Source of the DNA: Candidatus Niyogibacteria bacterium
GTDB taxonomy: Bacteria; Patescibacteriota; Minisyncoccia; HO2-45-28
Reading direction: 5' to 3'
Length of the DNA stretch: 64,000 nucleotides
Assembly: GCA_016432485.1 (NCBI GenBank)
Contig: CP066691.1
Span: 281,762-345,761 of the forward strand
The translations under genes and the position numbers were made by a program. The notes under the pieces were generated by a model. It searched no databases and was not told the origin of the DNA. It saw nothing but the letters and a program-made list of their open reading frames with translations. Below are positions 10,525 to 59,755 of this stretch, one piece after another (position 1 is the first letter of the stretch; every line of letters starts with the position of its first letter).

Positions 10525-10841
10525 AAAAAATAAAAAGTATTTTTACAATTTAACATATTATTCAAAAGATTAAAATGGTTGATATGCCCTTATTTTTTAT
10601 GTTTTAGGCAGGCGCATATGGCGGTTTTTTAGCTCCGCGGTATTTGATTTTTCAAACCGGCCGTTCTTTGCCCCAGCGGGCAAAGTCGGCCTGCGCTCTC
10701 GGCGCAAAATCGGCCTCAATGCCTGCGCGGCATAAAAAAGAGGCCGAACCGTGCTTTTGCGCCTCCGAGAGCTTTGAAAAACCAAACACCGCTTCGCTTT
10801 TGTAAAAACCGCCAAATGTGCTTGCCCATTACCTTAAAGTA

Positions 10842-10870
10842 TTGACAAAATATAATAATAGGAGTATAAT
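10842..10870 (+). promoter_or_regulatory. consensus sigma70 promoter (TTGACA, 17 nt, TATAAT)
   Basis: TTGACA at 10842-10847, a 17-nt spacer and TATAAT at 10865-10870, about 70 nt upstream of the 10940 ATG. RBS GAGGAGGGAG lies before the start. Confidence 0.6.
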
Positions 10871-10939
10871 AGGAGTTAAATAAATAGGCAGTTCTTAAGA
10901 CAAACCAAGCGCCCACGGGGCGAAAGAGGAGGGAGTAAA

Positions 10940-11725
10940 ATGAGTTTCCGGATGAAGGTGGTGCTGTCTTTGGCCTTGACAATGTTCGGTCTCACTGCCG
11001 TAACCCCGGCCTTCGGGGACGTGCTCACCTGCGGCAAGGACGTGATCGTGAACAGCGATTCAACCTACGCGCGGTTTGCGGGTCTTGACCCTGACTGCTA
11101 CGGCAGGGGCGTGGAGCCAGCCGTGGTCGTCTCGAGTAAGGAACGGCGCGAGGCCGCCGAGGCGAGGATACGCATCTTGGAATCCGAGCTCAAGAAAGCG
11201 GTGGAGCCGGCCGTGGTCATCCCGGAGAGCAGCAGGAAACGGCACGAGGCCGCCGAGGCGAGGATACGCATCTTGGAATCCGAGTCCAAGAAGGCAATGG
11301 ATGAACTCAAAAAGCTGGCAGCCCTACGGGCAAAACCGGCAATCAAACCGCCGGTGGTGAAAACCACCCTGACAGCGAAAAAAGCAACTACCGTCGCCGG
11401 CAAAAAGAAGTCCGGCCCCCCCACGCCATCCTGGGTATGGATTATGATTGGCGTGGTGCTCATCGCGATCCTGGCGTCATTACTCGCCAAAGTCGCAGAG
11501 AACTTTCCAAGCCGGCTTATCATGAAAGGTGGGCGCCGAGCCGCCGCACCGGCCGGCCCAACCGCGCCGCCCAACCCAGAGGCGCCACCCGCCCCCGAAA
11601 ACGCAACCCCGCCTGACACTCCCGCGCCTGCCGAAGAGCAGTCCGTCGATGAAAAACCGCCGACGGAACCAGACGAACCCTCAACGCCGTCAACTACGTC
11701 GGGCGTCAGCACTTCCAGACGCTAA
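10940..11725 (+). CDS. secreted/membrane protein with a tandem roughly 31-aa repeat, a central TM helix and a Pro/Thr-rich tail; high-GC gene
   Basis: Signal peptide. Two tandem 90-96-nt repeats (11111-11200 and 11201-11296), each containing EAAEARIRILESE. TM helix WVWIMIGVVLIAILASLLA. PAPT-rich C-terminus. Local GC is visibly much higher than the flanks. Confidence 0.6.
   Translation: MSFRMKVVLSLALTMFGLTAVTPAFGDVLTCGKDVIVNSDSTYARFAGLDPDCYGRGVEPAVVVSSKERREAAEARIRILESELKKAVEPAVVIPESSRKRHEAAEARIRILESESKKAMDELKKLAALRAKPAIKPPVVKTTLTAKKATTVAGKKKSGPPTPSWVWIMIGVVLIAILASLLAKVAENFPSRLIMKGGRRAAAPAGPTAPPNPEAPPAPENATPPDTPAPAEEQSVDEKPPTEPDEPSTPSTTSGVSTSRR
11111..11296 (+). repeat. tandem direct repeat, 2 units of 90 and 96 nt, inside the CDS
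   Basis: gtggagcc[a/g]gccgtggtc...cgaggccgccgaggcgaggatacgcatcttggaatccgag repeated, with a 40-nt identical core. Confidence 0.85.
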
Positions 11726-11746: not shown

Positions 11747-11778
11747 GGGGCTCCCCCACCAGGGAGCCCCGTTTTTTA
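11747..11778 (+). terminator. intrinsic terminator
   Basis: GGGGCTCCC-ccacca-GGGAGCCCC followed by GTTTTTTATT. Confidence 0.7.
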
Positions 11779-11869: not shown

Positions 11870-12190
11870 ATGGTCACATTGCCGGACGGCGTTACGTTTA
11901 TTTTCGAACGAAACAGTAAATTAAAATATGTTAAAACTACCGAATACACCTCTGATCGCCTGCTGATTTTTTCCCGACTGATTAAAAAAACGACGGGGGA
12001 AATTTTAAATTCAATCGCTGATAAATTCAACGATGATATTTCGGAAGAACTTATCAATCGCCATCTTGATGAACTGGACCCGCCGCTGCCAAACCCGGAA
12101 GATGTTGAAATCCGGGGTCCGGTTACGGATATTGAAATTCGAGCGCAATTTACAAGGTCACAGGAGCGCCTGATAGAACCATCAGAATAA
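11870..12190 (+). CDS. hypothetical protein
   Basis: RBS GGGAGG 8 nt upstream; followed by terminator CCCCTC-atttgc-GAGGGG plus a T-run at 12200-12236. Confidence 0.45.
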   Translation: MVTLPDGVTFIFERNSKLKYVKTTEYTSDRLLIFSRLIKKTTGEILNSIADKFNDDISEELINRHLDELDPPLPNPEDVEIRGPVTDIEIRAQFTRSQERLIEPSE

Positions 12191-12257
12191 CAAACACCCC
12201 GCCCCTCATTTGCGAGGGGATTTTTTATTTTTTAAAAATGTTTCTTCCTCTTCTTTT

Positions 12258-12727: not shown

Positions 12728-13219
12728 TTAGCGTATCAGCTGAAAAATGGCTATACCAAAGGCAACGCTGACATTAAGCGATTCCTTTTTGCCCCTCTGG
12801 GGAATTTCCAAAATTTTATCCGATTGTCTCAAAATACTTTCCGGCAGACCTTTTGTTTCTTCGCCCAAAATAAGTGCGTATTTAAACTTTTTAACAGATT
12901 TGAACTTAAAGATATTAACCGACTTTTTATGCTGTTCAAGCGCGAGTATTTTATAGCCCTCTTTTTTTAATTTTTTAATCAAGGCGGCCGCGGACTTGTA
13001 ATGTTCATACGACACGGAGTATTCCGCGCCGAGCGCGACTTTCGCCAGTTTCTGATTTATTCTGCCGTATTTATCGCGGGGCCCGGGCGTAATTCCGCAT
13101 AAATAAATTTTCTCAACGCCGGCGGCGTCGGCCGTCCTGAAAATTGAGCCGACATTATGCGAACTACGGATGTTATTTAAAATCGCGACCATAAAAAGAT
13201 AGTGTATCAATTTTAACAT
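12728..13219 (-). CDS. SpoU/TrmH-family RNA 2'-O-methyltransferase (SPOUT)
   Basis: C-terminal SPOUT knot motifs LILGEETKGLP and LNVSVAFGIAIFQL; about 160 aa. Confidence 0.8.
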   Translation of the reverse strand: MLKLIHYLFMVAILNNIRSSHNVGSIFRTADAAGVEKIYLCGITPGPRDKYGRINQKLAKVALGAEYSVSYEHYKSAAALIKKLKKEGYKILALEQHKKSVNIFKFKSVKKFKYALILGEETKGLPESILRQSDKILEIPQRGKKESLNVSVAFGIAIFQLIR

Positions 13220-13273
13220 AAAAACTTTACAAATTTTCCGCAGATAGTTAATCTTAGGCAGGATTTAGCTTCT

Positions 13274-30556: not shown

Positions 30557-31128
30557 GAATAAAATAGTTCGTTTTTTGTGGTATACTTAAATGTGTATGC
30601 CAAAAGAAAAACGAACATACGCCGACCGCCGAGAGTATTTAAAAATGGCAGTGACCAAAAGACGACGAAGATTAAAAACACTGCTTGTAGAATATAAAGG
30701 CGGGAAATGCACGGTCTGCAGTTATAATAAAACCCCGTGGGCAATGGATCTTCATCATGTTGATGAATCCAAGAAATCATTTGATATGTCCTCACGCGGA
30801 CTTACCCGCTCATGGGAACGTCTTAAAAAAGAGGCAGATAAGTGTGTGTTGCTTTGTGCAAATTGTCACAGAGAAATACACGCCGGCGTAACGCAGCTTC
30901 CTAAAGTAATTTAGGTTGAAAAATCTCGGGATAACGGTGAAGCCCTAAATCTTTTGCATTAGATTGGGTAATACCGTGGGAACCTTTGCTTGTTCGGGGT
31001 TTACTCCGAGCGAAGTCGAGGAGCGCCGTAGAGACTAGATACCGAGATCCCGCCATTCATTTGAAATATTATTTAATGGAGGGGGGGAAAGATATAGTCC
31101 AACCCTAAAAGTAATTTTAGGACCGTTG
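30557..31128 (+). mobile_element. group I intron (about 572 nt) with an embedded HNH homing-endonuclease ORF
   Basis: Lies between tRNA halves. Exon 1 ends in T and the intron ends in G (accgttG). P7-like pairing GAGACTAGA / GATATAGTCC, with the latter close to the Tetrahymena AGATATAGTCGG segment. P9-like hairpin CCTAAAAgtaaTTTTAGG just before the 3' splice site. Confidence 0.6.
30591..30914 (+). CDS. HNH homing endonuclease (intron-encoded)
   Basis: CTVCS...DLHHVD...CANCHREIH HNH/zinc-finger motif; 107 aa, basic. Confidence 0.75.
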   Translation: MCMPKEKRTYADRREYLKMAVTKRRRRLKTLLVEYKGGKCTVCSYNKTPWAMDLHHVDESKKSFDMSSRGLTRSWERLKKEADKCVLLCANCHREIHAGVTQLPKVI

Positions 31129-31464: not shown

Positions 31465-34398
31465 ATGTCGGTTTTTCTTAAAAAATATTTGGCTGAAAAA
31501 GTAGCTCTTCAAAAAATGGCCGGCTCTTTGAACCGCCTATCTTCTGTCTTGGCAAAATCAACGATTGACCTCAACCCGTATCAAATTCATGCGGCTCTTT
31601 ACGCATTTAACAGTCCGCTTTCTCGTGGCGCAATTTTGGCCGATGAAGTCGGCTTGGGTAAGACGATTGAAGCCGGCATTATCATATCCCAACTTTGGGC
31701 CGAAGGGAAGAGAAAGATATTAATTCTTGCCCCGGCCTCGTTAAGAAAACAGTGGCAAGATGAGTTGCTTTCAAAATTTGGAATTGAATCAGAAGTTTGG
31801 GACGGCCCCTCTTTTAGGGCGCAAACAGACATGGGAGAAAAGACACCCCTAACTTACAGTGGCGTTTTTATAATTTCTTACCATTTTGCTTACAGCCACC
31901 TTGAATTGATAAGGAAGCAAGGTTGGGCTGTTGTTGTAATAGATGAAGCCCATCGTTTTAGGCGTGTGTTCAAGGGAAGAGATGCCTCAAAAATGGCATA
32001 CGACATTCGGGAAATAATAAAAGATAAACCAAAGGTTTTGCTGACGGCAACACCCCTGCAAAACAGCCTTGAGGAATTATACGGGATAGCAAGTTTTATA
32101 GACGACAAGCTTCTCGGATCATCCTATAGTTTCAAAACGAAGTTCATACAGCCGATAAAGGACCAGTCGGGGTTAGCTAAATTGAGATTGGAGGAATTGA
32201 GGGCATTGATACGCGGGGAAGAAGGCGACGACCCGTCGTCAATCTCCGGAGTAATTACACGGACTTTGAGAAAACAAGTTTTGGAGTATGTGCAATTTAC
32301 CGACAGGACATCAATGACTTTTGACTTTACTCCCACCGAGGAAGAAGTTGAATTGTACGAGAAAGTTTCCGCATACCTCCAGCGTCCTAATGTGGCGGCC
32401 ATTACCGCGACGCAGAGAAATTTGATGATTCTCGTTTACAGAAAATTATTGGCCAGTTCGTCGTTCGCCATAGCCGACACCCTGAAGAAGTTAAGTGAGA
32501 ATCTAAAAAACGAATTGAAGTTGCGAAATAAAGAAGCAGTGGCCGAGGAGTTGAATCCGGAGTCAACGGCAGATGAGGGCCTTTTGGAAGAATTTGAAGA
32601 ATCAGAATTGGAGGGAGTAGAACAAGGTCAGAAGAAAGAAAAGCAACGCGTTGACGATACTTTTAGCGATGACGACATAAAAAAGGAAATAGAGGAGTTG
32701 GAAGGATATTATTCATTGGCAGTCAAAATTAAAGAAAACACAAAGGGTAAAGCGTTGATTAACGCCTTGTCGCAACTTTTCAAACAGGCCAGAGAAAAGA
32801 AGTGGCCTGAAAAAGCTGTGGTGTTCACAGAGTCAACGCGCACTCAGGACTATCTTTTAAAACTTCTCAAAGAAGCCGGAATTTCTTTTACGGAATTCAA
32901 CGGGTCAAATAACTCGCCCGAAGCACGAGAGGCATTCAATCGTTGGAAAAAGGAGTTTCCAGAAGCGGCATCTGTTGGTTCAGCATCTGCCAACACGCGC
33001 CAAGCTCTTATTCATGACTTCAGAACAAATACACAAGTCTTGCTTACCACAGAAGCGGGGGCGGAAGGATTAAACCTCCAGTTTGCAAATATTGTCATCA
33101 ATTATGATTTGCCGTGGAATCCTCAAAGAGTGGAACAGAGAATCGGCCGTTGCCACCGCTACGGCCAAAAGCACCAAGTGGTAGTTGCGAATTTTCTTAA
33201 TACAAAAAATTACGCCGATAAGCGAGTACTGGAATTGTTGAGCGAGAAACTAAATTTATTTAACGGACTTTTTGGAAGTTCCGATGAGATTCTTGGCGCT
33301 TTGGAATCCGGTCTTGATTTTGAAAAGAAGATACTTGAAATTTATCAAAACAGCAGAAGCCCTGAAGAATACGACAAAGCGTTTACAGAACTACAGGAAA
33401 GCTTGAAAGATGTTATCTCAAAAACAACCTTGCAATATAGAAACTTGTTATTGGAAAGCGCGGATCAAGCTGTTGCCGCATTATTCAAAAAAACGGAAGC
33501 GGAAACTAAAAAAGCGATTTCAGATTTTGACAGGGATTTGCTTTTTCTCTGCAAGCTCACGCTGGAAGAAAAGATAAAACCAACCGAGGATGAGGCGATT
33601 TTTGTGATAGATGGTTATAAATTTCCGATTGCTTTTCGAGAGCTTCGCGATGATGAAGAAGGTAAAATTTCCCGCGCGCACAAAGACCATCCAGTCATCA
33701 GTAAAATTATTGAAGATAATTTGAAACTGCAAACTAAGCCGATACCTTCTTTGATTTTTGAGCTTTCAAAACACGGCGGTAAAATATCCCAGTTGAGCGA
33801 CGCTAAAGTAAAAGAAGGATTTATATTTCTTTGGAAGTTAAAGATAGCCGGAGTCGAGACGGAAGAAATTTTAGTGCCGCTCGTTTTTCTCGAAAAAACA
33901 GAAGGCGAATTCAGCGCATTGGATGTGGCAATTGCCAATGAATTCATTGATGTGGAAAGTGTTGATTCTGAAAAAACACTTGAGAGTTCGCCTATTAAAA
34001 AAGAGTTTTTGCTTCAAACTTGGGAAAAATGGAAAAAGCCAGTTGTAGAAAGGTATCAGAAAAGAAATGAGCGTCTTTTTGACAGGGAGACGAACAGGAT
34101 AAACCGATATTACGACGACTACGCGCTTCGTGTTGAAGATAGGATGAAAAAGTCGGAAAATGAACAAAAGGATGTAAATCGTAGGAGAGATAATTCCTCC
34201 GACTTGGAAGAAAGGCGGAAGTTGCTCAAGCGAATTCAAGACATCAATATTGCTTTGGACAAGCTAAGAATCCAGCAGTTGAAGTTGAGACAAGAAGGTG
34301 CGAAATTGCGAGAAAAAGAACTGGACAATCTTTGGAAAACTCTGGAGCCGAAAATTTCCGAAGAAATGATTGCGATAACGCATTTCACCATTCAATAA
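31465..34398 (+). CDS. SNF2-family DNA-dependent ATPase/translocase with a roughly 350-aa C-terminal domain of unknown function
   Basis: Motif I DEVGLGKT, Ia PASLRKQWQDE, II DEAH, III TATPLQNSLEELY, helicase-C motifs (TEAGAEGLNLQ, QRIGRCHRYGQ). Acidic insert between lobes; coiled-coil C-terminus. Confidence 0.85.
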   Translation: MSVFLKKYLAEKVALQKMAGSLNRLSSVLAKSTIDLNPYQIHAALYAFNSPLSRGAILADEVGLGKTIEAGIIISQLWAEGKRKILILAPASLRKQWQDELLSKFGIESEVWDGPSFRAQTDMGEKTPLTYSGVFIISYHFAYSHLELIRKQGWAVVVIDEAHRFRRVFKGRDASKMAYDIREIIKDKPKVLLTATPLQNSLEELYGIASFIDDKLLGSSYSFKTKFIQPIKDQSGLAKLRLEELRALIRGEEGDDPSSISGVITRTLRKQVLEYVQFTDRTSMTFDFTPTEEEVELYEKVSAYLQRPNVAAITATQRNLMILVYRKLLASSSFAIADTLKKLSENLKNELKLRNKEAVAEELNPESTADEGLLEEFEESELEGVEQGQKKEKQRVDDTFSDDDIKKEIEELEGYYSLAVKIKENTKGKALINALSQLFKQAREKKWPEKAVVFTESTRTQDYLLKLLKEAGISFTEFNGSNNSPEAREAFNRWKKEFPEAASVGSASANTRQALIHDFRTNTQVLLTTEAGAEGLNLQFANIVINYDLPWNPQRVEQRIGRCHRYGQKHQVVVANFLNTKNYADKRVLELLSEKLNLFNGLFGSSDEILGALESGLDFEKKILEIYQNSRSPEEYDKAFTELQESLKDVISKTTLQYRNLLLESADQAVAALFKKTEAETKKAISDFDRDLLFLCKLTLEEKIKPTEDEAIFVIDGYKFPIAFRELRDDEEGKISRAHKDHPVISKIIEDNLKLQTKPIPSLIFELSKHGGKISQLSDAKVKEGFIFLWKLKIAGVETEEILVPLVFLEKTEGEFSALDVAIANEFIDVESVDSEKTLESSPIKKEFLLQTWEKWKKPVVERYQKRNERLFDRETNRINRYYDDYALRVEDRMKKSENEQKDVNRRRDNSSDLEERRKLLKRIQDINIALDKLRIQQLKLRQEGAKLREKELDNLWKTLEPKISEEMIAITHFTIQ

Positions 34399-34399
34399 T

Positions 34400-35374
34400 A
34401 TGTCAACGGAAATTAAACAAAAAAAACAGGACTTGGGAATTTTTTACACCGACCAGAGAATCGTGAGTTTTATATATGATATTCTTTCTGTCTGGAAAGC
34501 AAAAGAGGACGAGGATTTAAAGCGTTGGGAGAGTCGAAAACCTCATGCTCACTATCCGTCAGTTATTGATCCGGCTTGCGGCGAGGGAATCTTCTTAAAG
34601 AAAGCAGTGGAGTCCGGTTTTACCGGATACAATCCTACACATAAAGTGCCATATATTTTCGGTATTGATATAGATGAATCGGTTGTTGATAAATGGGAAT
34701 CTGTTGAGCTTCTAAATTTTTTCCACGAAGACAGAAGGGCAATGAAAAATCACTTTTATGGCCAAAACGGATTGCTTAATCTGCCGAATAGAAAATTGCC
34801 TTACAAAAAAATGGAAGACGGACTTGTACAATTTGATGCGGTTGTTGGTAATCCGCCGTATGGAGGCATCGGTCTTAAAGAAGAAGAAATGAGGGGCAAA
34901 TTGGCGGCATCCCTTTTGGAGTACGAGATATGGAAATACGCTTTTGATATACAAATAAGCAAGCAGGGAAATATGTTTGGATCCATGGCCTCTCAAAAGG
35001 ACATTGTAAATAGATTGAGAAATATGCCCATCGAAATTTTATTTCTAGAGAGATTTATACAACTTGCAAAGCCGGGCGGTTGGATAGCTATCATTATTCC
35101 AGACGGCATTTTAACCAATTCAAATTCTCACTATGTACGCGAATTTGTTAGCGAGAAAGCAAGAGTGGAAGCAATTGTTTCTTTGCCGCGAGACGCTTTC
35201 AAAAATGTTGGCACAACAGCCAAAACCAGCATTTTATTTTTACAAAAATATAAAGACCAAGGGAAAGAGCGAGATTTAAACTATCCGGTTTTTCTCGCTT
35301 CAGTCGAATCTCTTGAAGAAAAATATTTTAAAATTATAAAAGATGCTTACCAAAAGCATTATACAAAAATATGA
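34400..35374 (+). CDS. gamma-class N6-adenine DNA methyltransferase (HsdM/Eco57I-like catalytic module without TRD)
   Basis: Motif I DPACGEGIFL and motif IV VVGNPPYGG; the start is 2 nt after the SNF2 stop. Confidence 0.8.
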   Translation: MSTEIKQKKQDLGIFYTDQRIVSFIYDILSVWKAKEDEDLKRWESRKPHAHYPSVIDPACGEGIFLKKAVESGFTGYNPTHKVPYIFGIDIDESVVDKWESVELLNFFHEDRRAMKNHFYGQNGLLNLPNRKLPYKKMEDGLVQFDAVVGNPPYGGIGLKEEEMRGKLAASLLEYEIWKYAFDIQISKQGNMFGSMASQKDIVNRLRNMPIEILFLERFIQLAKPGGWIAIIIPDGILTNSNSHYVREFVSEKARVEAIVSLPRDAFKNVGTTAKTSILFLQKYKDQGKERDLNYPVFLASVESLEEKYFKIIKDAYQKHYTKI

Positions 35375-36198
35375 GCAAGAAAAATTTAGTTCAAATAACA
35401 ACAGATGAAAAAGGTCGGGAAATCGTAATGGTACGAGTGGATAAAACCCTGAAAGAAATGATGGAAGAAAAACCATCAAGTAGATGGAATGCTGCTTACT
35501 GGCATCCAACCTATGTTAAAAATTCAGAAGAAATAGCAGCAAGTAATTTTTCTGTAATTAAAATAGGCGACGCGGAAGAAAGATTGACTTATGGCGCAAT
35601 CGTTACTGGCGGGAAAAATTATGAGGGGAAGGGAGTATTTTTAGTCAATCAGGGAGATATCCAATTTACCGGATTAGATAATACGAATTTGAAAGAAGTT
35701 AAAAAAGCTTCTCCTTGGAATATTGAACGCGCAAAGGTTAAACTTAATTCTTTGATTTTAGCTCGATCTGGAGTTGGAGGAGTTGGTAAAAATCGAATTA
35801 CTATTATAACCAAGCCAATGAATGCGGTGGTAGATAGTTTTGTTGATGTTTTAGACCTAGACGATAAAAAAATTAATCCTGTTTATGTACTTGTCTTTTG
35901 GAAAACTATGTTTGGGAAATTACAAATTGAAAGAATAATAAATGGCGTTGGAACTGTAAATATTAGTTTTGATGAAATTAGAGAAATGAAAATACTTGAT
36001 ATTTCGGAAGGTGTTCAAGGCAATATTGAATCCGAATATAAAAAAATATCTGTCTTTCACGACAAGGCAATGGAAGCAAAGAAAAAGGGCAAGGATGTGG
36101 AATACAAAGCTAACATGGAAACCGCCGAGAGAATGCTGAAAGATTTAATCGCTAAAACCGAAGCCGTTATTCGCGGCGAGAAAAAAGATGTAATTTAA
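35371..36198 (+). CDS. HsdS-like DNA specificity protein with a single target-recognition domain
   Basis: TRD-like pattern (LTYGAIVTGG..., LILARSGVGGVGKNRITI, INGVGTVNISFDEIREMKILDISE) plus a helical conserved region. Overlaps the MTase stop by 4 nt. Confidence 0.7.
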   Translation: MSKKNLVQITTDEKGREIVMVRVDKTLKEMMEEKPSSRWNAAYWHPTYVKNSEEIAASNFSVIKIGDAEERLTYGAIVTGGKNYEGKGVFLVNQGDIQFTGLDNTNLKEVKKASPWNIERAKVKLNSLILARSGVGGVGKNRITIITKPMNAVVDSFVDVLDLDDKKINPVYVLVFWKTMFGKLQIERIINGVGTVNISFDEIREMKILDISEGVQGNIESEYKKISVFHDKAMEAKKKGKDVEYKANMETAERMLKDLIAKTEAVIRGEKKDVI

Positions 36199-36203
36199 TT
36201 TTT

Positions 36204-37997
36204 ATGCCAGAACAAAGGTCGGAAAATTCTTATATCGTAAACGACATCTTACCGTTTCTGGCAAGCAATTTTGGCTACCCGATTCATGACGCGGAGCGAG
36301 TAAAAATAAACGATGTTCCGATTTTTCGGCCAAGCGGCGGCAGAAGTGGGTCCACAATTGATATTGTCTACTATCATAACGGGGAGCCAGTTCTTCTCAT
36401 TGAAGCAAAAACTAAACATAAAACTCATGAGTCCGCATTGATAGAAGCAAAGAATTATCTAAAAAACTTTCCCATAGACAAACCGGAGTTTGCTCCGTCT
36501 GGCTTGCCCCCAAAAATTTTGGCAACAACAGTCGGTAAAAACATTAAATTTTACAAATGGAGCATAGATTATTCAAAACCAATTCCGGATTTTATAACCG
36601 AAGAAATTGAGGTTTTATCATTTGAGAAGTTGCTTTCCTACTACGGATTAATTAAAGAATATAAGGCGCGCATTTTAGAGCCCAAAAACTTTGCCACGGA
36701 TTTTTTTGACGAACTAATTTCTATTTTCAAATTTCATAAAAAAGAGAAAAAAATAACAAAGGATGTTGTCAAAGAAGTTGTTTATCAAATTCACAATTAT
36801 TTGCTGAATCCAAAAAAATACACCGGCGATTATCCTTACACCGAATTGGACTTACAAGGACAAAAAGCCGTTCGCGATCTGTTTAAGCGATTTGATTTTG
36901 TCGCTTCGCTTGGCCCGGAAATAGCCAAAGAATTTCGCAAGTCGATTTTGAGATCTTTTCAAGGCGAAGAATTCAATCAGTACCTTACCGAAAAATGCGT
37001 TATAGATTTTGTTTTCGGTCTGATTGGCAAATTGAACAAACACACGAAAGTTTTGGATTTCGAGTGTGGTAGTGGAGGATTTTTGGCGACGGCAGTCAAT
37101 CAGAACAATTTGGATTTGGAAAATGTGATGGGGATTGATATTGAGGACTTGCCTTATATCATCGCCAAAACTTACTTTGCTCTGTACTTCGGAAAAACCG
37201 GTGAGGGGTTGAATCTTGTCCCAATAAAGAAAGATAACGGCTTGTTTTATCACGGCAAGAATTGGGATTTAGTTGTGGGCAATCCCGCCGGAAGCAGTAA
37301 ATACGAACATGGCGATGAAGATAAAATTTTTGAGAATCTAAATAGTGATTTAAATAACGACGACAAAAAAGATAAAATTTCGGAGTACAATTTGTCAATT
37401 CAGCAAGCGATTCAATCCGCTCGCGTTGGCGGCAAGATTTGTTTGATACTGCCTGAAGGAGTGTTTTCAAATTCTCAAGACGAGTTTTTAAGAAAATATA
37501 TCGCCAAATATTGCAATATATTGGCAATCGTGAGCTTGCCACCGGGGTCGTTCAGAAGAGGAACAACAGTAAGCCAGTTAAGGAGAGGCGCACAATCTGC
37601 TTCAATGAAAATGTCTATTGTGTACGCGGAAAAAACCAGAGAGGTCAGGAAAAAAGAAGGATTGGAAGTTGATTTGAGGCATTTGGACTACCCGATATTT
37701 TTAGCGCACATTGATAAGGTTGATTCCGGATCAGGCGAAATCAGTGAATGGCTGGAGGAAAGATTAAACGTTGTGTTGGAGCAATGGAAAGAGTGGCAGA
37801 ATAAAGCTGAATTGAATGATATTGAAAAAATAACCACAAAGCTTGATAAAGAAGAAAAGATAAAAGAAAATCAAAAAACTTTGTTTAGCAAGGTCGAGCT
37901 CGACAAGACAAACATAGAAAAAAGTAAAAAGATAAAACCAAAAGAGGGTAAGTCAGAAACAAAGATAAGCAAAAACTTGGAAGATTTATTAAGTTAA
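36204..37997 (+). CDS. HsdR_N-type PD-(D/E)xK nuclease fused to a paralogous N6-MTase-like domain with a degenerate motif IV (NPAG) and a Lys-rich coiled-coil tail
   Basis: N-terminus GSTIDIVYYHNGEPVLLIEAKTK (D...ExK). MTase-like domain has motif I LDFECGSGGFLATAV but VVGNPAGSS in place of NPPY. Collinear similarity to the 34400-35374 protein (MGIDIE vs FGIDID, GGKICLILPEGV vs GGWIAIIIPDGI, AIVSLPP vs AIVSLPR). Confidence 0.7.
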   Translation: MPEQRSENSYIVNDILPFLASNFGYPIHDAERVKINDVPIFRPSGGRSGSTIDIVYYHNGEPVLLIEAKTKHKTHESALIEAKNYLKNFPIDKPEFAPSGLPPKILATTVGKNIKFYKWSIDYSKPIPDFITEEIEVLSFEKLLSYYGLIKEYKARILEPKNFATDFFDELISIFKFHKKEKKITKDVVKEVVYQIHNYLLNPKKYTGDYPYTELDLQGQKAVRDLFKRFDFVASLGPEIAKEFRKSILRSFQGEEFNQYLTEKCVIDFVFGLIGKLNKHTKVLDFECGSGGFLATAVNQNNLDLENVMGIDIEDLPYIIAKTYFALYFGKTGEGLNLVPIKKDNGLFYHGKNWDLVVGNPAGSSKYEHGDEDKIFENLNSDLNNDDKKDKISEYNLSIQQAIQSARVGGKICLILPEGVFSNSQDEFLRKYIAKYCNILAIVSLPPGSFRRGTTVSQLRRGAQSASMKMSIVYAEKTREVRKKEGLEVDLRHLDYPIFLAHIDKVDSGSGEISEWLEERLNVVLEQWKEWQNKAELNDIEKITTKLDKEEKIKENQKTLFSKVELDKTNIEKSKKIKPKEGKSETKISKNLEDLLS

Positions 37998-38001
37998 AAA
38001 T

Positions 38002-38283
38002 ATGAAAAAAGATAATAAAACAATAGGTATTACAATTCGTTTTTTCACCAACGATCTGCCGGGTCGTGTAGGAACCAAAAAGGAACACACACCATTTTGG
38101 ACTTGTGGCAACGTTCATCTCGAGGCGAACAAAACAAAAGGAATAAAACCTCAAGATGAAATGTTCAATTACTTTGAAGATATTCCCCGCGCAATTAAGG
38201 TGGTTTTAAGCAAAAGTAAATTGGTAGCCGTTGAAGATGTTGCGTATAGCATGAGAGCAGAGAAAAGAAGAAAAACAAGTTGA
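38002..38283 (+). CDS. small hypothetical protein, last gene of the operon
   Basis: 93 aa; begins 4 nt after the upstream stop. Confidence 0.4.
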   Translation: MKKDNKTIGITIRFFTNDLPGRVGTKKEHTPFWTCGNVHLEANKTKGIKPQDEMFNYFEDIPRAIKVVLSKSKLVAVEDVAYSMRAEKRRKTS

Positions 38284-38568
38284 TCAGCTCGTCTATGGTT
38301 CGATAAACTCACCACAGGTAAACTCTACACCCTCACCCCGGAGGAAATTAAGGTTGTGGAAAATTGATTTGCATTTTCAAAAATTTATGTCCTAACTTTA
38401 AAACCAAGTTGATTTTTTAAATAAAATATGCTAGACTTAAACTAAAGTAGATAAAAAATTGAGAGATTAATAAATCGGGGGTTCGCTAAACATTTTTTGT
38501 GACGCAACCTCATTCATCCCTCCGATTCACGGAAAGATGCTCGTCCGAAAACGGCGGCATCTCAAGAA

Positions 38569-38597
38569 AAACGGACGGGATAGGTCCGTTTTTTTGT
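38569..38597 (+). terminator. intrinsic terminator
   Basis: AACGGAC-gggatag-GTCCGTT followed by TTTTTTG. Confidence 0.65.
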
Positions 38598-38634
38598 TTG
38601 CTGAGTCGAAAAACAGTAATTATTAATTCATTGC

Positions 38635-38919
38635 TTGTCAAAATATATGATAACTTTAGAGCTTGTTTTCGCAGTTATAACAACCGTCCTTACTCTAGCC
38701 AATATTTTTCAGTGGTTTGATCACAGATCAAAAAATAAAGCACTGCAAAGCTTTCTGGAAGCTATTCACGACATCTCTAAAAGGTTAGAGGGGGTAAGTG
38801 ATGGACCAACAATTAAACAAAAATCTCAAGATATTTGTTCGGTAGTAAACGCCGCAATAGTAACGGTTGGTGGATATAAAAAGCCGTTTTTTAACCGCAT
38901 TAAAAAGGGTGGGGCTTAA
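38635..38919 (+). CDS. hypothetical membrane-anchored protein
   Basis: N-terminal TM; followed by terminator AAACGGCTAAATC-ggtg-GATTTAGCCGTTT at about 38996-39032. Confidence 0.4.
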   Translation: MSKYMITLELVFAVITTVLTLANIFQWFDHRSKNKALQSFLEAIHDISKRLEGVSDGPTIKQKSQDICSVVNAAIVTVGGYKKPFFNRIKKGGA

Positions 38920-39101
38920 AAATCCTGAAAACCACATGAGTCTTGATCTGCTTAGATAAGCGGAGATGGCGCTTTGCTAATTCAGGGACCCGACACCAAA
39001 CGGCTAAATCGGTGATTTAGCCGTTTGGTTTGCCCTTGATTTTTCCCAAAATTTTTTGTAGGCTTGGAATATCTTTATGGATATCTTTATCTTCTTAAAA
39101 A

Positions 39102-39785
39102 GTGAAAAAAGATCAAAAAATATATATAAAAGAGAACGATGTTAACTTTCGGAAGCCATCCGGTGAACCAGATGGCGTGGAAAAAATGAAAGCGGGACAG
39201 AATCTCGTTTTTGTGGATGGGCCGTGGTTTAGGGCAACAAAAGATGGAAAGATTGGTTGGGTCTATGCTGACTATATATCTGAAACGAATCCGAACCCCG
39301 CACAGCAGCCACAGCAATTGATTTCTTTTGTGGAGGGATGGCCAAACTTATACAACAGCCCTGTTACTGTTGCCGTTCGCGAAATTATTAATAATGAGTT
39401 TGGGCTTGAAGCGGAGAAAATCCCGTTAAATTGTACCGAATACGTCCAGTATTGCATCAAGACAAAACTGGGCATTGTTATCGAGTGGCCATCTGACCGC
39501 CCGCGTCATGGCGGAAAATGGGCAGATATTTTTAGACGAAATAATTTGTACAAGGTTATAAATGAACCAGTTTCAAATTGTGCTGCTTGTTTTACTGATG
39601 TCCGCAAGAAAGACGGAACTTTAACAAAGGAAGGTCACGTTGCATTTGTTGAAGAAATATTTCCTGATGGCTCAATAAAAATTTCAGAGGCAAATTGGCC
39701 CAACAGCGGTATTTATAGTGAGCGTATTTTAAGCAAAGCGGATTGGCAAAATAAATATAGGTGCCGTTTTATTGATTTTTTATGA
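39102..39785 (+). CDS. SH3b plus CHAP-domain peptidoglycan hydrolase (no signal peptide)
   Basis: SH3b-like GQNLVFVDGPWFRATKDGKIGWVYADYI. CHAP Cys (CTEYVQYC) and His (GHVAFVEEI). Confidence 0.65.
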   Translation: MKKDQKIYIKENDVNFRKPSGEPDGVEKMKAGQNLVFVDGPWFRATKDGKIGWVYADYISETNPNPAQQPQQLISFVEGWPNLYNSPVTVAVREIINNEFGLEAEKIPLNCTEYVQYCIKTKLGIVIEWPSDRPRHGGKWADIFRRNNLYKVINEPVSNCAACFTDVRKKDGTLTKEGHVAFVEEIFPDGSIKISEANWPNSGIYSERILSKADWQNKYRCRFIDFL

Positions 39786-40279
39786 CAATACCGGGTCAAC
39801 AAAAAGTACGAAAAATTATTCGTGGGGACGAACAAAATAGGATTACTATTGCGGTGGTATTTTTGGCCACCTATCTAACTATTATTTTTGGGCTGTCTGA
39901 TAAAATCAGGGTATCTATAAATGATATAAACGGGATGAGCATCTTGAATGACTTGGTTTTTGCAATTTTTATAGTTTTCGGCGTCTTAATTTCATCTCTG
40001 TTTTTCTTATATCTAGTTTTCACGGCACTAAGTTTAGATTTTAATAAACAAAAAGAGGTTATTTTTGAGCAAGAGGTGAGTGAGAAAAAATTAGTTAAAG
40101 TAAGAGAAAAACTTTTTAATGCTGGAGTGCGATCTGTTTTCATTTCATTTACGTTCCCGGTTTATTATCTCTTCGTTTTGTTTAGGAAAGGTTACGGAGT
40201 ATGGACCTCCGTATTGCTGTGGGGCTTCAGTCTAGCCTTAATATATATTTTGTTATTTTTAGTTTTTAAAGACGATTAA
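39782..40279 (+). CDS. four-TM membrane protein, hypothetical
   Basis: Overlaps the CHAP gene by 4 nt. Confidence 0.45.
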   Translation: MTIPGQQKVRKIIRGDEQNRITIAVVFLATYLTIIFGLSDKIRVSINDINGMSILNDLVFAIFIVFGVLISSLFFLYLVFTALSLDFNKQKEVIFEQEVSEKKLVKVREKLFNAGVRSVFISFTFPVYYLFVLFRKGYGVWTSVLLWGFSLALIYILLFLVFKDD

Positions 40280-40311
40280 CTGGCCAACAAAAAAATTAGG
40301 AAAATAAATTT

Positions 40312-41136
40312 ATGAACGAATTTGAATATATTAAACAGCATCTGCTCAATAGATTAGAAATTGATCGCGGATACTCTCATGGTGGGGCCCAGCGTATTTT
40401 AAGAGAACAACTAAATGAATGGGAAAAAAGAAAAAATGGCATTAAAGATTTATATGGCTTGTATAGACAATTTCTTATAAGCGCGCAAAATCGGCAGGGC
40501 ATGCCTAACATTATAGGGGGAGAAAAAGGGGTTGATGAAATTTTAGAAAAAGTCATTAAGACACGACGACTTGATAAAATTGTGGAAAACTTTAAATCAC
40601 CGGAAATTCTCTTTGAGAAAATTAAAAAGGTGAGTATAACAAAAAAACATACACTGAAAAGCTCTAAAAATACATGGATTGGTTTTTGTAAATCTGTTAT
40701 ATCCAGCGCGGAGTTTTTAAAGCAGTTTAAAGATTTAAACGATTTTAGAAAGTTTGCGGATTCTTTGTATAAAGTGAGGGGAGCGCGTATGGCTCTGCCT
40801 CTTATCATAAGTGCGGAAGTTAGCGGGATTGGGTTGGCATTGGCTTGTGATATTTTAAAAGAAAGCGGATACCCAGATTATGTTAAACCCGATATTTGGA
40901 TTAAGCGCTTTGCAAAAGCTTTTGAAATTACAAAGTCAAACAGCGACTACAGAATAGCGGAGGATCTCGTGGCTTATAGTAAATCTATTAACGAACTGCC
41001 GTATGTGGTTGATAAGGCGTTCTGGTTAACTGGTAGCGGAGATTTTTATCTTAGTGGAGATAAAATCGAAAGAGTTAAAAAAGAAGATATAGAAAGTTTT
41101 GTTGAAAAATATAAAAAAGAGAAATTAACCCCATGA
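40312..41136 (+). CDS. hypothetical protein with an HhH-GPD-like motif (possible DNA glycosylase fold)
   Basis: LPLIISAEVSGIGLALACDIL followed by VKPDIWIKRF resembles the EndoIII LPGVG...VDTHIFRV arrangement. Confidence 0.35.
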   Translation: MNEFEYIKQHLLNRLEIDRGYSHGGAQRILREQLNEWEKRKNGIKDLYGLYRQFLISAQNRQGMPNIIGGEKGVDEILEKVIKTRRLDKIVENFKSPEILFEKIKKVSITKKHTLKSSKNTWIGFCKSVISSAEFLKQFKDLNDFRKFADSLYKVRGARMALPLIISAEVSGIGLALACDILKESGYPDYVKPDIWIKRFAKAFEITKSNSDYRIAEDLVAYSKSINELPYVVDKAFWLTGSGDFYLSGDKIERVKKEDIESFVEKYKKEKLTP

Positions 41137-56954: not shown

Positions 56955-58586
56955 ATGAAAACCAGAAATTGGCTAATTTTGATACTTATACTTGCCGCGG
57001 TTTTACGTTTTTGGGGGCTCTCCCGAGGCGACACCGTAAACGATGAGGTCTTTTATGGATTTCGGGCCGTCGGCCTTATGGATTTTGACGAGGCAGCCGA
57101 ACAAACAACGCCTCTTGAATGGCTTGATCCGAACATCCCCTCATGGACCAAACTCTCCTTCCACGACCATCCGCCGCTGGTATTCTGGGTCCAGCATTTC
57201 TCCATTTTGCTTTTCGGAGAAAATAATTTTGCTCTGCGCTTTCCGTCAGCCGTACTGGGCATTTTATCGGTTTATCTTTTGTATTTAATCGGCCGGCGGC
57301 TTTACTCGGCGCGCGCCGGCTTGGTGGCCGCGGCCTTAATGGCCGTAACGCTCAACTCGGTTTATATTTCGCGGACAGGACTGCAGGAAGCATTCGTGAT
57401 ATTTTTCCTGCTTTTGGCGTCTTATTTTTTTCTGCGCTCGCTTGATGAAGAAAATTATCTAATCTGGCTTGGCGCCGCGCTCGGACTCGGATTTTTGACA
57501 AAATATAACGTTTTTGTGCTTGTTCCGATTTTTACAACCTATTTGCTATTTTTCAGGCGCGATTATTTTTTGAATAAAAAATTGTGGCTCGGCGGGGCGC
57601 TGGCCGCGATTATTTTCAGCCCGGTGATAATTTACAATATTAAACTTTACCAAACGGTCGGGCATTTTGACTTTCAATTTTCTTATATTTTCGGCCAAAA
57701 TCCAGAGGTCTGGAAAATCGCTCCGGGCAAAGAAATCGGGGGCCTTACGGACCGACTTAAGAACTTCGTTTTGCGCTTTATCGCAAGCAATTCGTGGCTG
57801 TTTCTCGGGATTTTCGCGGCGGCGGCATCTGCGGCACTTGTAGGTGCGATAAAGAAACGAAAAGAGTTTTTAAAAGAAAATTCCTTTCTTCTTCTTGCCT
57901 CCGCTTACTTGCTTTTGTTACTAGCCGCAATCGGCCCCTCATACCGCTTTTTAACCATGCTTACGCCGTTTATGGCCCTTGGCACCGGAGTTTTTCTGAA
58001 TTACATTTATAAAAGCAAAATTTTTCTTCTCGCTCTCGGTGTATTTCTTGCGTTTGAAATTTTTTATTCTTTCAACAACCAAATCACCTACTACCCCATC
58101 GGGCCCCAGCTGTGGCTTTCTTCAAAAGTCCGCTATGAAAATTACAACTGGGGTTATAACGCGCTCGGAGATTTTTTTAAAAAAGAACTCAAAGAAAAAA
58201 TGCCGGCTATAAGATTTGACGCGCGCTATAAATTTATTGAAAAAGCGCAGGATAAATCTTTAGAGCTTGCTCAAAAAAACGGCTTTGAACCGTTCCCGGC
58301 TATGATTATAACCTACGGCAATTTTGACCGCGGAGCGAAACTCTGGGTTTTAGACCGGCTGCATATTTATCACGGCTGGCCGGTGATTGATCTGGATACC
58401 TATTTTAAGTATTTATCCGAAAACGGCCCTGACTATTACGAGCGAGTTGGTTTTAAGCATTACTATTTCGTGTTGGCTGCTAATATCGTTCCCTCTTACG
58501 AATTCCAAAAAATAGTCGGGGATACCAAATCCTTGAGCGTTTTAAATCCTCGGGGTGATGAGACGTTTAGGATCTATAAATTTTAA
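56955..58586 (+). CDS. PMT/ArnT-family (GT39/GT83-like) membrane glycosyltransferase
   Basis: N-terminal DE-containing loop (VNDEVFYGF), 10 or more TM helices, C-terminal soluble domain. Confidence 0.6.
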
Positions 58587-59755
58587 CTGTAACCGTCAAG
58601 TTTATGCGCTTTTGAATGCTGGCGGATTCTTTCAAGGGCTTTGGCCTCAATCTGGCGGATGCGTTCGCGAGTAACGCCGAATTCTTTGCCTACTTCCTCC
58701 AGAGTGTGGGTTATGGCGTCTTCCAGACCGAAACGCATTTTTAAAATCTTCTGCTCTCTGGGCGTAAGATCAACTATTATATCGCGAAGCTGGTCTTTTA
58801 AAAGTTTTCGCGCGGTTTCTTGATCGGGAGAAAGAATAGTATCGTCCATTATAAACTCACCCAGCGTTGAATCCTCTTCGTCCTCGCCCACTGGAGCGTC
58901 AATTGAAATCGTATCCTGCGAAATCTTCTGAATATGATGAATTTTTTCAACCTCAAGACCCATTTCATCGGCAATTTCTTCAGCCAGCGGGTCGCGCCCC
59001 AAATCCTGCGTTAATCTGCGCACGGCCTGCTGATATTTTGAAATGGTTTCAACCATATGCACCGGAATACGAATGGTGCGCGCCTGGTCTGCCAGCGCCC
59101 TGGTAATAGCCTGCCGAATCCACCAGGTGGCGTAAGTCGAAAACTTGAATCCGCGCCTCCAGTCAAATTTTTCCACAGCGCGGAATAAACCGATATTCCC
59201 TTCCTGAATCAGATCCAGAAGAGTGAGATTCGGGGAGCGTCCGGCGTAACGCTTGGCGATTGACACCACCAAACGCAGGTTGGCTAAAGCCAGACGATTC
59301 TTGGCGTCTTCGTCTCCTTTTTCTATTTTTCTGGCCAGTTCCTTTTCGTCCTCAGCGCTAAGTAACGGTATTTTCCCTATTTCACGAAGATACATCTGCA
59401 CCGAATCCGTACCCGTAAGCTCCAGCGCCTCGCGCAGCTTAACCTGGCGCGTCTTTTTTTCCTCAACTTCCAGCAGGTCTTTGCCTTCAACCACATCAAT
59501 ACCGGCCTCCTGCAAACGGTTATAAAGATCTTCAAGAAAAAGAATGTTGCGTTCAATATGGTGAAACTTGGACAGTATTTCACCATAGGTTACAAATCCT
59601 CGGATTCTTCCGCGCTTAATGAGTTCAGCGACTTTTTCCTCGCTAAACTCCTTTTTAGCCGAGAATCTGCCTGCCGCGGATAACTTGGGCTTTTTTGCAG
59701 ACTTGGCCCCGGGCCTTTTTTTGGCCCTGGATTTTGATTTGATCTTTTTAGGCAT
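58583..59755 (-). CDS. rpoD: RNA polymerase primary sigma factor (sigma-70)
   Basis: Region 2 [10 protein letters not shown]...[12 protein letters not shown]; regions 3 and 4 present. Confidence 0.9.

Follow-up and report, generated by a model that had tools for sequence, protein, structure and literature searches.

An orphan gene for a predicted cell-surface protein at a probable local hot spot of divergence in a Niyogibacteria genome

Introduction

What kind of gene differs so sharply in base composition from the DNA around it? The question is raised by a transcription unit at 10842–11725 (plus strand) in a 64,000-nt stretch of DNA from a Candidatus Niyogibacteria bacterium (contig CP066691.1, positions 281,762 to 345,761). 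This stretch, analysed in full, is referred to as the window. An earlier note on this DNA described a GC-rich repeat-protein gene and suggested either recent horizontal acquisition or a rapidly evolving, contingency-type surface protein. Bacteria of the candidate phyla radiation (CPR; Patescibacteria) are thought to live attached to other cells and, to our knowledge, almost nothing is known of the proteins they expose. The reading that we favour, and consider probable, is that this is a resident gene for a small, lineage-restricted cell-surface protein, which sits at a fixed locus as a local divergence hot spot with at least two allele classes.

Results

The transcription unit and its product

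The region 10842–11725 holds a single complete transcription unit. Its coding sequence, at 10940–11725, specifies 261 amino acids (aa), with the stop codon at 11723–11725. The features of the unit, all on the plus strand, are as follows.

10842–10870, plus strand: sigma-70-type promoter (TTGACA at 10842–10847, 17-nt spacer, TATAAT at 10865–10870)
10871–10939, plus strand: 5′ leader of ~60 nt, with a small hairpin and the ribosome-binding site (RBS)
10940–11017, plus strand: residues 1–26, signal-peptide-like (MSFRMK, a hydrophobic core, then AFG/D; hydropathy 1.5–1.9 over residues 3–26; predicted helix 3–30; conserved in the homologue P0002, described below)
11018–11110, plus strand: residues 27–57, a small head with two conserved cysteines, C31 and C53, and the conserved motifs CGKDV and DPDCYGRGVE
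11111–11200, plus strand: repeat unit 1, 30 aa, residues 58–87, predicted helical: VEPAVVVSSKERREAAEARIRILESELKKA
11201–11296, plus strand: repeat unit 2, 32 aa, residues 88–119: VEPAVVIPESSRKRHEAAEARIRILESESKKA
11330–11428, plus strand: residues 131–163, a basic Lys/Pro/Thr/Ala-rich linker with a low predicted local distance difference test (pLDDT) score and no secondary structure
11429–11527, plus strand: residues 164–196, comprising a transmembrane (TM) helix (164–187; Kyte–Doolittle values up to 2.64) and the juxtamembrane motif NFPSRLIMK (188–196)
11528–11722, plus strand: residues 197–261, an acidic Pro/Ala/Thr-rich tail of 65 aa (17 P, 10 A, 8 T), missing from the other allele class
11747–11777, plus strand: intrinsic terminator (GC-rich hairpin at 11747–11770, followed by a T run)

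The perfect TTGACA-17-TATAAT promoter of the earlier note was confirmed, and it proved to be the sole 12/12 match to the sigma-70 consensus within the window. Sites with at most one mismatch numbered three, compared with 0.31 expected from shuffled sequences. Because the window encodes a full-length primary sigma factor (RpoD, 58583–59755, regions 1.1 to 4), a sigma-70 consensus promoter is meaningful in this genome. The leader contains the hairpin CGCCC-ACG-GGGCG (10910–10922) and, as had been noted, a strong RBS, GAGGAGGGAG at 10926–10935, with a GGAGG core that ends 7 nt before the ATG at 10940. In the deposited annotation (HYY55_01540/QQG46509.1, from an 836,981-bp contig of a Candidatus Niyogibacteria metagenome-assembled genome (MAG)), the protein begins at Met5. 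We prefer the start at 10940 because of its spacing from the RBS and because the N-terminus is conserved in the relative (MGFLMK). The gene, which has its own promoter and its own terminator, is monocistronic and is probably strongly transcribed.

Two further observations concern the unit itself. An exact 11-nt tandem duplication (ATAATAGGAGT twice, 10855–10876) spans the −10 hexamer and does not occur in the L001 promoter introduced below. On the minus strand, a 204-aa open reading frame (ORF) lies inside the gene at 11098–11712; the high GC content, which leaves few stop codons, most likely accounts for it.

In the protein, the N-terminus resembles a signal peptide, as the earlier note had it. 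This is predicted from hydropathy (the hydrophobic stretch covers residues 7–25) and the −3/−1 rule. The TM helix and the PAPT-rich tail were likewise recovered. Each repeat unit consists of a VEPAVV segment and an Arg/Glu/Ala-rich helix. A single-sequence AlphaFold model (pLDDT 57.7) placed helices at residues 3–30, 66–92, 98–130 and 164–187, such that the second repeat helix extends beyond the repeat to about residue 130. A wider segment around the linker, residues 119–165, carries a net charge of +9. The NFPSRLIMK motif after the TM helix was unchanged in all alleles. Since DsbA-like and DsbD-TM genes are present in the window, an extracytoplasmic disulfide in an exported head is plausible.

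Two tandem repeats of about 31 aa, near-identical at the nucleotide level, had been described. The two units are indeed present, at 30 and 32 aa. Their DNA is similar rather than near-identical: pairwise alignment gave 81 of 90 aligned nucleotides identical (90%) and a 6-nt indel. The units have in common a perfect 40-nt core, at 11149–11188 and 11245–11284. This 90/96-nt repeat was detected by repeat finding and pairwise alignment and was not reported by the tandem-repeat program TRF, which also found no short multi-copy tandem repeats.

From this architecture we propose a type-I membrane topology. A Sec signal peptide would be cleaved after AFG, and the extracellular part would consist of the two-cysteine head, the two helical repeats with a third helix, and the basic Lys/Pro/Thr-rich spacer. 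The single C-terminal TM helix would anchor the protein, leaving on the cytoplasmic side the conserved NFPSRLIMK motif and, in the window allele, the Pro/Ala/Thr-rich tail.

Divergence at a fixed locus

A single related genome was available for comparison. On its MAG contig CAZNNT010000006.1 (L001), the homologue P0002 stands in the order PIG-L (minus), gene (plus), NUDIX (minus) and SpoU (minus), the same as in the window. A further homologue, P0009, occupies the identical site in a Logan contig (L055, run SRR12113429). Both alleles keep the perfect promoter, the RBS, the leader hairpin and the terminator. More specifically, the hairpin and RBS are retained in L001 despite several indels in the leader, and the stem-loop of the terminator is identical. 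Nucleotide identity between the window and L001 was as follows.

PIG-L: 96.7%
Intergenic DNA left of the promoter: 97.2%
Promoter and leader (hexamers, hairpin and RBS kept): 89.6%
Signal peptide and head: 83%
Repeats and spacer (the middle, with many gaps): 73%
TM part: 85%
NUDIX: 95.9%

At the protein level, the gene product was 54% identical between the window and L001, compared with 97% for PIG-L, 98% for NUDIX, 94% for a DUF502-like protein and 82% for SpoU. The repeat, the tail and the leader further differ between the haplotypes by indels. The claim of a rapidly evolving, presumptive surface protein is thus borne out by the contrast with the flanking genes. According to Nei–Gojobori estimates of non-synonymous (dN) and synonymous (dS) divergence, the gene had a dN of 0.37 and a dS of 0.52, for an overall dN/dS of 0.72; by segment, dS was 0.74 in the middle and 0.12 in the TM segment. 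The corresponding values were 0.015 and 0.105 for PIG-L and 0.013 and 0.237 for NUDIX, and dS was 0.36 for SpoU. Because dN is ~25-fold above that of PIG-L and NUDIX, and dS is raised as well, the pattern fits an old or imported allele segment within conserved flanks better than simple point-mutation drift.

The alleles fall into two classes. The one represented by L001 has neither the tandem repeat nor the tail and ends in MKLRAR followed by the stop codon; its middle is 11 codons shorter than that of the window allele, not one repeat unit shorter. The L055 allele is 98.6% identical to L001 and is likewise without the repeat and the tail, and also without the upstream element and orf106 described below. 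Within this short class, P0002 and P0009 differ by three non-synonymous and three synonymous changes. The window class is represented by nine Logan contigs from at least seven runs (SRR12113418, -25, -26, -28, -30, SRR12113385 and SRR4343428), all 100% identical to the window over the parts covered. Both classes appear in the same run series or study, as assumed from the accession numbering. Overall, the transcription unit has two or more highly divergent allele classes, although the genomes that contain them share ~95% identity elsewhere. The gene is by far the most divergent between these two near-identical, co-occurring haplotypes, and could serve as a strain marker.

Relatives and known protein types

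The protein has almost no relatives. A word-indexed search of 5.8e9 protein clusters returned only the protein itself (P0001) and P0002 (190 aa), and an exhaustive profile search of 1.84e9 representatives added nothing credible. Cluster look-up added P0009 (190 aa), which differs from P0002 by three residues. In total, ~15 billion proteins were searched, and the two 190-aa alleles are the only relatives found among them. A 3056-aa eukaryotic ZP-repeat protein (P0003) was rejected as a homologue: the match covers a 36-aa stretch, repeated in the subject, at 39% identity, and was judged to be due to chance. A scan of genome contigs with the neighbouring PIG-L as query yielded one close relative, the L001 contig, and 20 distant loci, none of which (0/20) encodes the protein beside PIG-L.

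Family searches were similarly negative. Pfam gave no match for the protein. The best matches in NCBIfam (GspC, E = 0.08; 12.6 bits against a cut-off of 150), PHROGs (E = 0.005) and a Protein Data Bank sequence search (0.028, a coiled coil) were not significant. We regard these weak matches as coiled-coil noise. A search of phage DNA with the island at this locus as query had no match. Judged by these searches, the gene is an orphan restricted to one Niyogibacteria lineage.

Several known protein types were considered and set aside. The protein is not a bacterial lipoprotein, as it has no lipobox ([LVI][ASTVI][GAS]C): the signal region ends TPAFG/DVLTC, with the cysteine five residues after an aspartate and preceded by VLT. 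It is not a sortase-anchored protein; the sequence before the TM helix, KKKSGPPTPSW, contains no LPXTG, and the helix is followed by an 18-aa conserved motif and the 65-aa tail. A unimolecular spanin, a holin-like lysis protein and a type IV pilin were all rejected, given the missing lipobox, the lack of phage context and the lack of a G/FxxxE prepilin motif. Finally, the repeat is not a target of a diversity-generating retroelement: differences between the units include T>C, A>G, G>A and others and are not A-specific, and no reverse transcriptase (RT) domain occurs in window ORFs of at least 90 aa.

Base composition and the question of acquisition

The contrast in composition that the earlier note had reported withstood both a sliding GC profile and a codon-usage check against the 66 other window ORFs of at least 90 aa. 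The GC content of the gene is 0.616, compared with 0.439 for these ORFs (standard deviation (sd) 0.038, maximum 0.506; z = 4.7). At third codon positions (GC3) it is 0.718, compared with 0.452 (sd 0.062, maximum 0.553; z = 4.3). In 200-nt windows, GC ranged from 0.58 to 0.67 within the gene and from 0.35 to 0.49 in its flanks. Under background codon usage, this protein would be encoded at a GC content of 0.548. Ala, Pro, Arg and Gly account for part of the excess and synonymous choice for the remainder. Codons ending in T make up 8.8% of the gene against 27.7% of the background, those ending in C and in G are both increased, GTT is used for none of 22 valines and GGA for none of 13 glycines. 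As synonymous codon choice is also shifted, the contrast is not merely an effect of protein composition.

Horizontal transfer from a high-GC organism might have brought in such a gene, either recently, into this genome, or earlier, before the two haplotypes parted. No other window ORF has a similar codon usage, and the Ala/Pro/Arg-rich composition of the protein recalls proteins of high-GC bacteria. High expression is unlikely to explain the composition, since GC3 is 0.464 in the EF-P gene of the sister genome. Translational selection had no support from this value or from those of the window BipA and RpoD genes (~0.50), the three genes compared. Recent entry is contradicted by synteny: L001 and L055 have homologues at this site whose expression signals are identical, and the L001 allele has the same base composition, with a GC3 of 0.717 and 9.5% T-ending codons in a background GC of 0.445. 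Against acquisition in either version, no homologue in another organism, and so no donor, was found in the protein space searched; the window contains no tRNA, no integrase or transposase domains (Pfam, ORFs of at least 90 aa) and no direct repeats flanking the gene; and the promoter, RBS and terminator look native and are AT-rich.

On balance, we consider acquisition from a high-GC organism unlikely, and the suggestion of a recent one did not hold. Transfer before the split of the two haplotypes is possible, with no donor, mobility gene or tRNA to speak for it. High GC and GC3 are instead a long-standing property of the gene lineage, common to both allele classes, and no sign of recent entry into this genome. 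The case illustrates that atypical GC by itself is a poor indicator of recent transfer.

The question of contingency

A second possibility is that the gene is a contingency locus, in which the repeat copy number, through slipped-strand mispairing or unequal recombination, or a homopolymer tract frequently switches the form of the protein. The gene is clearly variable between strains, and the 40-nt identical core within the 90/96-nt tandem units would suffice for occasional unequal recombination. The coding sequence also contains one candidate tract.

11416–11422, plus strand: C7 homopolymer tract in the coding sequence, just before the TM helix; the sole C run of at least 7 in the 64 kb

A slip of ±1 in this tract would yield products of 168 or 225 aa without the TM helix. 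Seven C, however, is at the lower edge of tract lengths known to phase-vary, and the tract was unchanged in the five contigs that contain it. Moreover, the seven run assemblies were 100% identical over the parts covered. What separates the allele classes is replaced sequence and a length difference of 11 codons. They do not differ in the number of units, since in the short class the repeat is missing altogether. Slipped-strand contingency, as proposed in the earlier note, is therefore not upheld, given only two long units at 90% identity. Logan contigs built with k = 31 end at 11178 or start at 11255, inside the 40-nt core and 30 nt into each copy. Because a k = 31 graph behaves in this way at a repeat, these breaks say nothing about copy number. 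Contingency behaviour is possible but unsupported, and we think it very unlikely to account for the locus.

Probable diversification in place of a presumptive surface protein

We return to the resident gene for a presumptive surface protein. The most likely process behind its divergence is that an exposed protein diversifies under host contact or under recognition by phages or antagonists. Alleles would be replaced through homologous recombination in the conserved flanks, and relaxed or diversifying selection and in-frame indels may act alongside this replacement.

Alternatively, the protein might work inside the envelope in a structural or assembly role, for example as a coiled-coil part, anchored in the membrane, of a secretion, pilus or division machine. 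It would then drift fast from low constraint and not from exposure. Helical repeats with a single TM helix are common in components of envelope machines; dN/dS is below 1, and the very weak GspC match points in the same direction. However, the gene is monocistronic and has no partner genes nearby, where unrelated housekeeping enzymes are encoded. The dS of the gene, 2–5 fold above that of the flanks, is not explained by low constraint alone. Machine components are normally conserved phylum-wide, unlike this gene without relatives. We consider this explanation very unlikely, on a par with contingency.

Several points weigh against the surface-protein reading. Hydropathy is the sole basis for predicting signal-peptide cleavage and surface exposure, and the AlphaFold model is poor. 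Exported segments seldom have a basic linker directly before the TM helix, as this protein does. The common origin of the sequencing runs in one study is assumed from their accession numbers. Three sequences in two allele classes do not separate selection from recombination, and dN/dS is 0.72, not above 1. The neighbourhood is itself somewhat mosaic: in the SpoU region (window 12728–13224, L001 7103–8797), SpoU has diverged more than its neighbours (82% aa identity, dS 0.36), and gene content differs, with a 389-aa AAA_28 gene directly after SpoU in L001 and none in the window, and with completely different genes beyond PIG-L. Lastly, the high GC3 is not accounted for by this reading. With these points taken into account, we still hold the surface-protein reading to be probable. 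As an orphan with the sole perfect sigma-70 promoter of the window and a predicted membrane anchor, the gene is a concrete candidate for a determinant of host or phage interaction.

Haplotype-specific segments and the upstream element

The window haplotype has four extras relative to L001 and L055: a 234-nt insertion, the repeat duplication, the tail and a 465-nt segment. The last replaces 5 nt of L001, between the terminator of the gene and NUDIX, and includes a short ORF.

11870–12190, plus strand: orf106, a haplotype-specific 106-aa ORF with its own RBS and a terminator at 12202–12219

With a GC content of 0.42, orf106 is native-like. A homologue search returned only itself, and the ORF is not present in L001 or L055. 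The 234-nt insertion lies on the other side of the gene.

10602–10835, minus strand: structured element of ~234 nt, a three-way junction that ends a few nucleotides upstream of the −35 hexamer and is not part of the gene

The element has a minimum free energy z-score of −9.3. Neither L001 nor L055 has it at this position; there, the sequence to the left of the junction is cccttattttt and that to the right is aaagggtattgaca. The junction is A/T-rich and compatible with a TA/TAA duplication or with none. A metagenome pattern scan yielded a copy at 81% identity (L047); 18 of its 19 hits were unrelated. Copies L051, L052, L053 and L054 were found by using a spurious ORF across the element as a protein probe. 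The six copies share the three-way junction, with 67 pairs and 98.2% of cells paired. Twelve pairs have changes on both sides, compared with 0–3 in slid controls, and none of 500 shuffles reached the observed score. That the window minus strand is the functional one is suggested by the conserved G.U pairs, which fill 22 cells, compared with 4 for A.C. Each contig has one copy, with none elsewhere in the window, and the genes downstream in the same direction are unrelated among copies (PIG-L, mraZ, a histidine kinase and infA).

Known families did not account for the element. Rfam gave no family at the gathering score; at E ≤ 1 there was a chance match (E = 0.65). The covariance model R1 found no further copy in the 388 kb scanned, and two viral scans found nothing. 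A retron non-coding RNA was rejected because no RT is encoded downstream and the hairpin order is reversed, and an integron attC site, 6S RNA and signal recognition particle RNA had no support from Rfam or context. A literature search on CPR 6S RNA or structured RNAs produced nothing relevant.

The element resembles both ERIC/Correia repeats, which are similar to miniature inverted-repeat transposable elements (MITEs), and small structured RNA genes, in being compact (~200–235 nt), intergenic, built on a long stem and present or absent between near-identical genomes. In contrast to MITE-like repeats, it is least conserved at its ends. The internal core is conserved, as are the G.U pairs, in a strand-specific manner, and copies occur once per contig. 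The outer stem of L052 differs in sequence yet still pairs, which would not be expected of MITE terminal repeats. The pattern fits a structured RNA, and the element is a candidate new structured RNA of Patescibacteria, perhaps mobile. If it is an RNA, it would represent a new family; we know of very few non-coding RNAs described from Patescibacteria. No evidence was found of a functional tie between the element and the surface-protein gene.

A more elaborate version of our reading brings these parts together. In it, the locus would be a strain-variable surface cassette. Balancing or frequency-dependent selection could maintain the separation of its two allele classes where Niyogibacteria populations occur together. 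The high GC3 of both classes might stem from GC bias associated with recombination and not from a foreign source, and the left border in the window haplotype would be a previously undescribed, possibly mobile structured RNA. We offer this version tentatively and consider it doubtful as a whole.

Elsewhere in the window

Two further regions of the window were of interest. A match to the group I intron family (RF00028; 57.3 bits, E = 6e-12) lies at 30815–31121; no tRNA or rRNA genes were detected in the window, and the intron has no assigned host gene. Just downstream of it, a low-GC island at ~31465–41136 contains ORFs with a GC content of 0.33–0.42, compared with 0.44 for the window. Among their products are a 977-aa SNF2/ResIII helicase, two Eco57I-like N6-adenine methyltransferases and a CHAP-domain protein, and several of the ORFs belong to no family. 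The region looks like a restriction or defence island and makes a stronger case for horizontal acquisition than the surface-protein gene does.

Comparison with known systems

By analogy, the predicted order of parts in the protein is that of the streptococcal M protein and pneumococcal PspA: a signal peptide, a variable helical repeat part, a Pro/Lys-rich spacer and a conserved C-terminal anchor. As with this gene, alleles of the M protein and PspA genes diverge very strongly, although the locus is fixed and the genomes are alike elsewhere. The only computed link to fibrillar surface proteins is a weak match of the PspA profile to P0002 (E = 0.18). By contrast with these proteins, ours has no sequence homology to them, no LPXTG and no choline-binding repeats, and is about a quarter of their size. 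Its anchor would be a TM helix followed by a cytoplasmic tail, and its host is a CPR bacterium.

The contingency loci of Neisseria and Haemophilus are alike in that a gene for a surface protein contains a repeat and a short homopolymer tract in its coding sequence. The present locus differs from them in that it lacks short repeats in many copies, its tract has just seven C, and no variation in length was observed. The gene is a member of none of the families compared here.

The nearest precedent within the CPR is the PTD-repeat gene of Gracilibacteria (BD1-5), a single gene, for a repeat protein predicted to be extracellular, that is locally hypervariable while the population is uniform elsewhere (PMC6851277). 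That gene has many 9-nt PTD units with synonymous variation and a conserved peptide, and its product has an N-terminal TM helix (PMC6851277). The Niyogibacteria gene differs in having two long helical units, mostly non-synonymous and indel variation, a C-terminal anchor and an atypical GC content. The two nevertheless have in common a CPR host, a hypervariable gene for a putative surface repeat protein and an assembly that broke at the repeat (PMC6851277).

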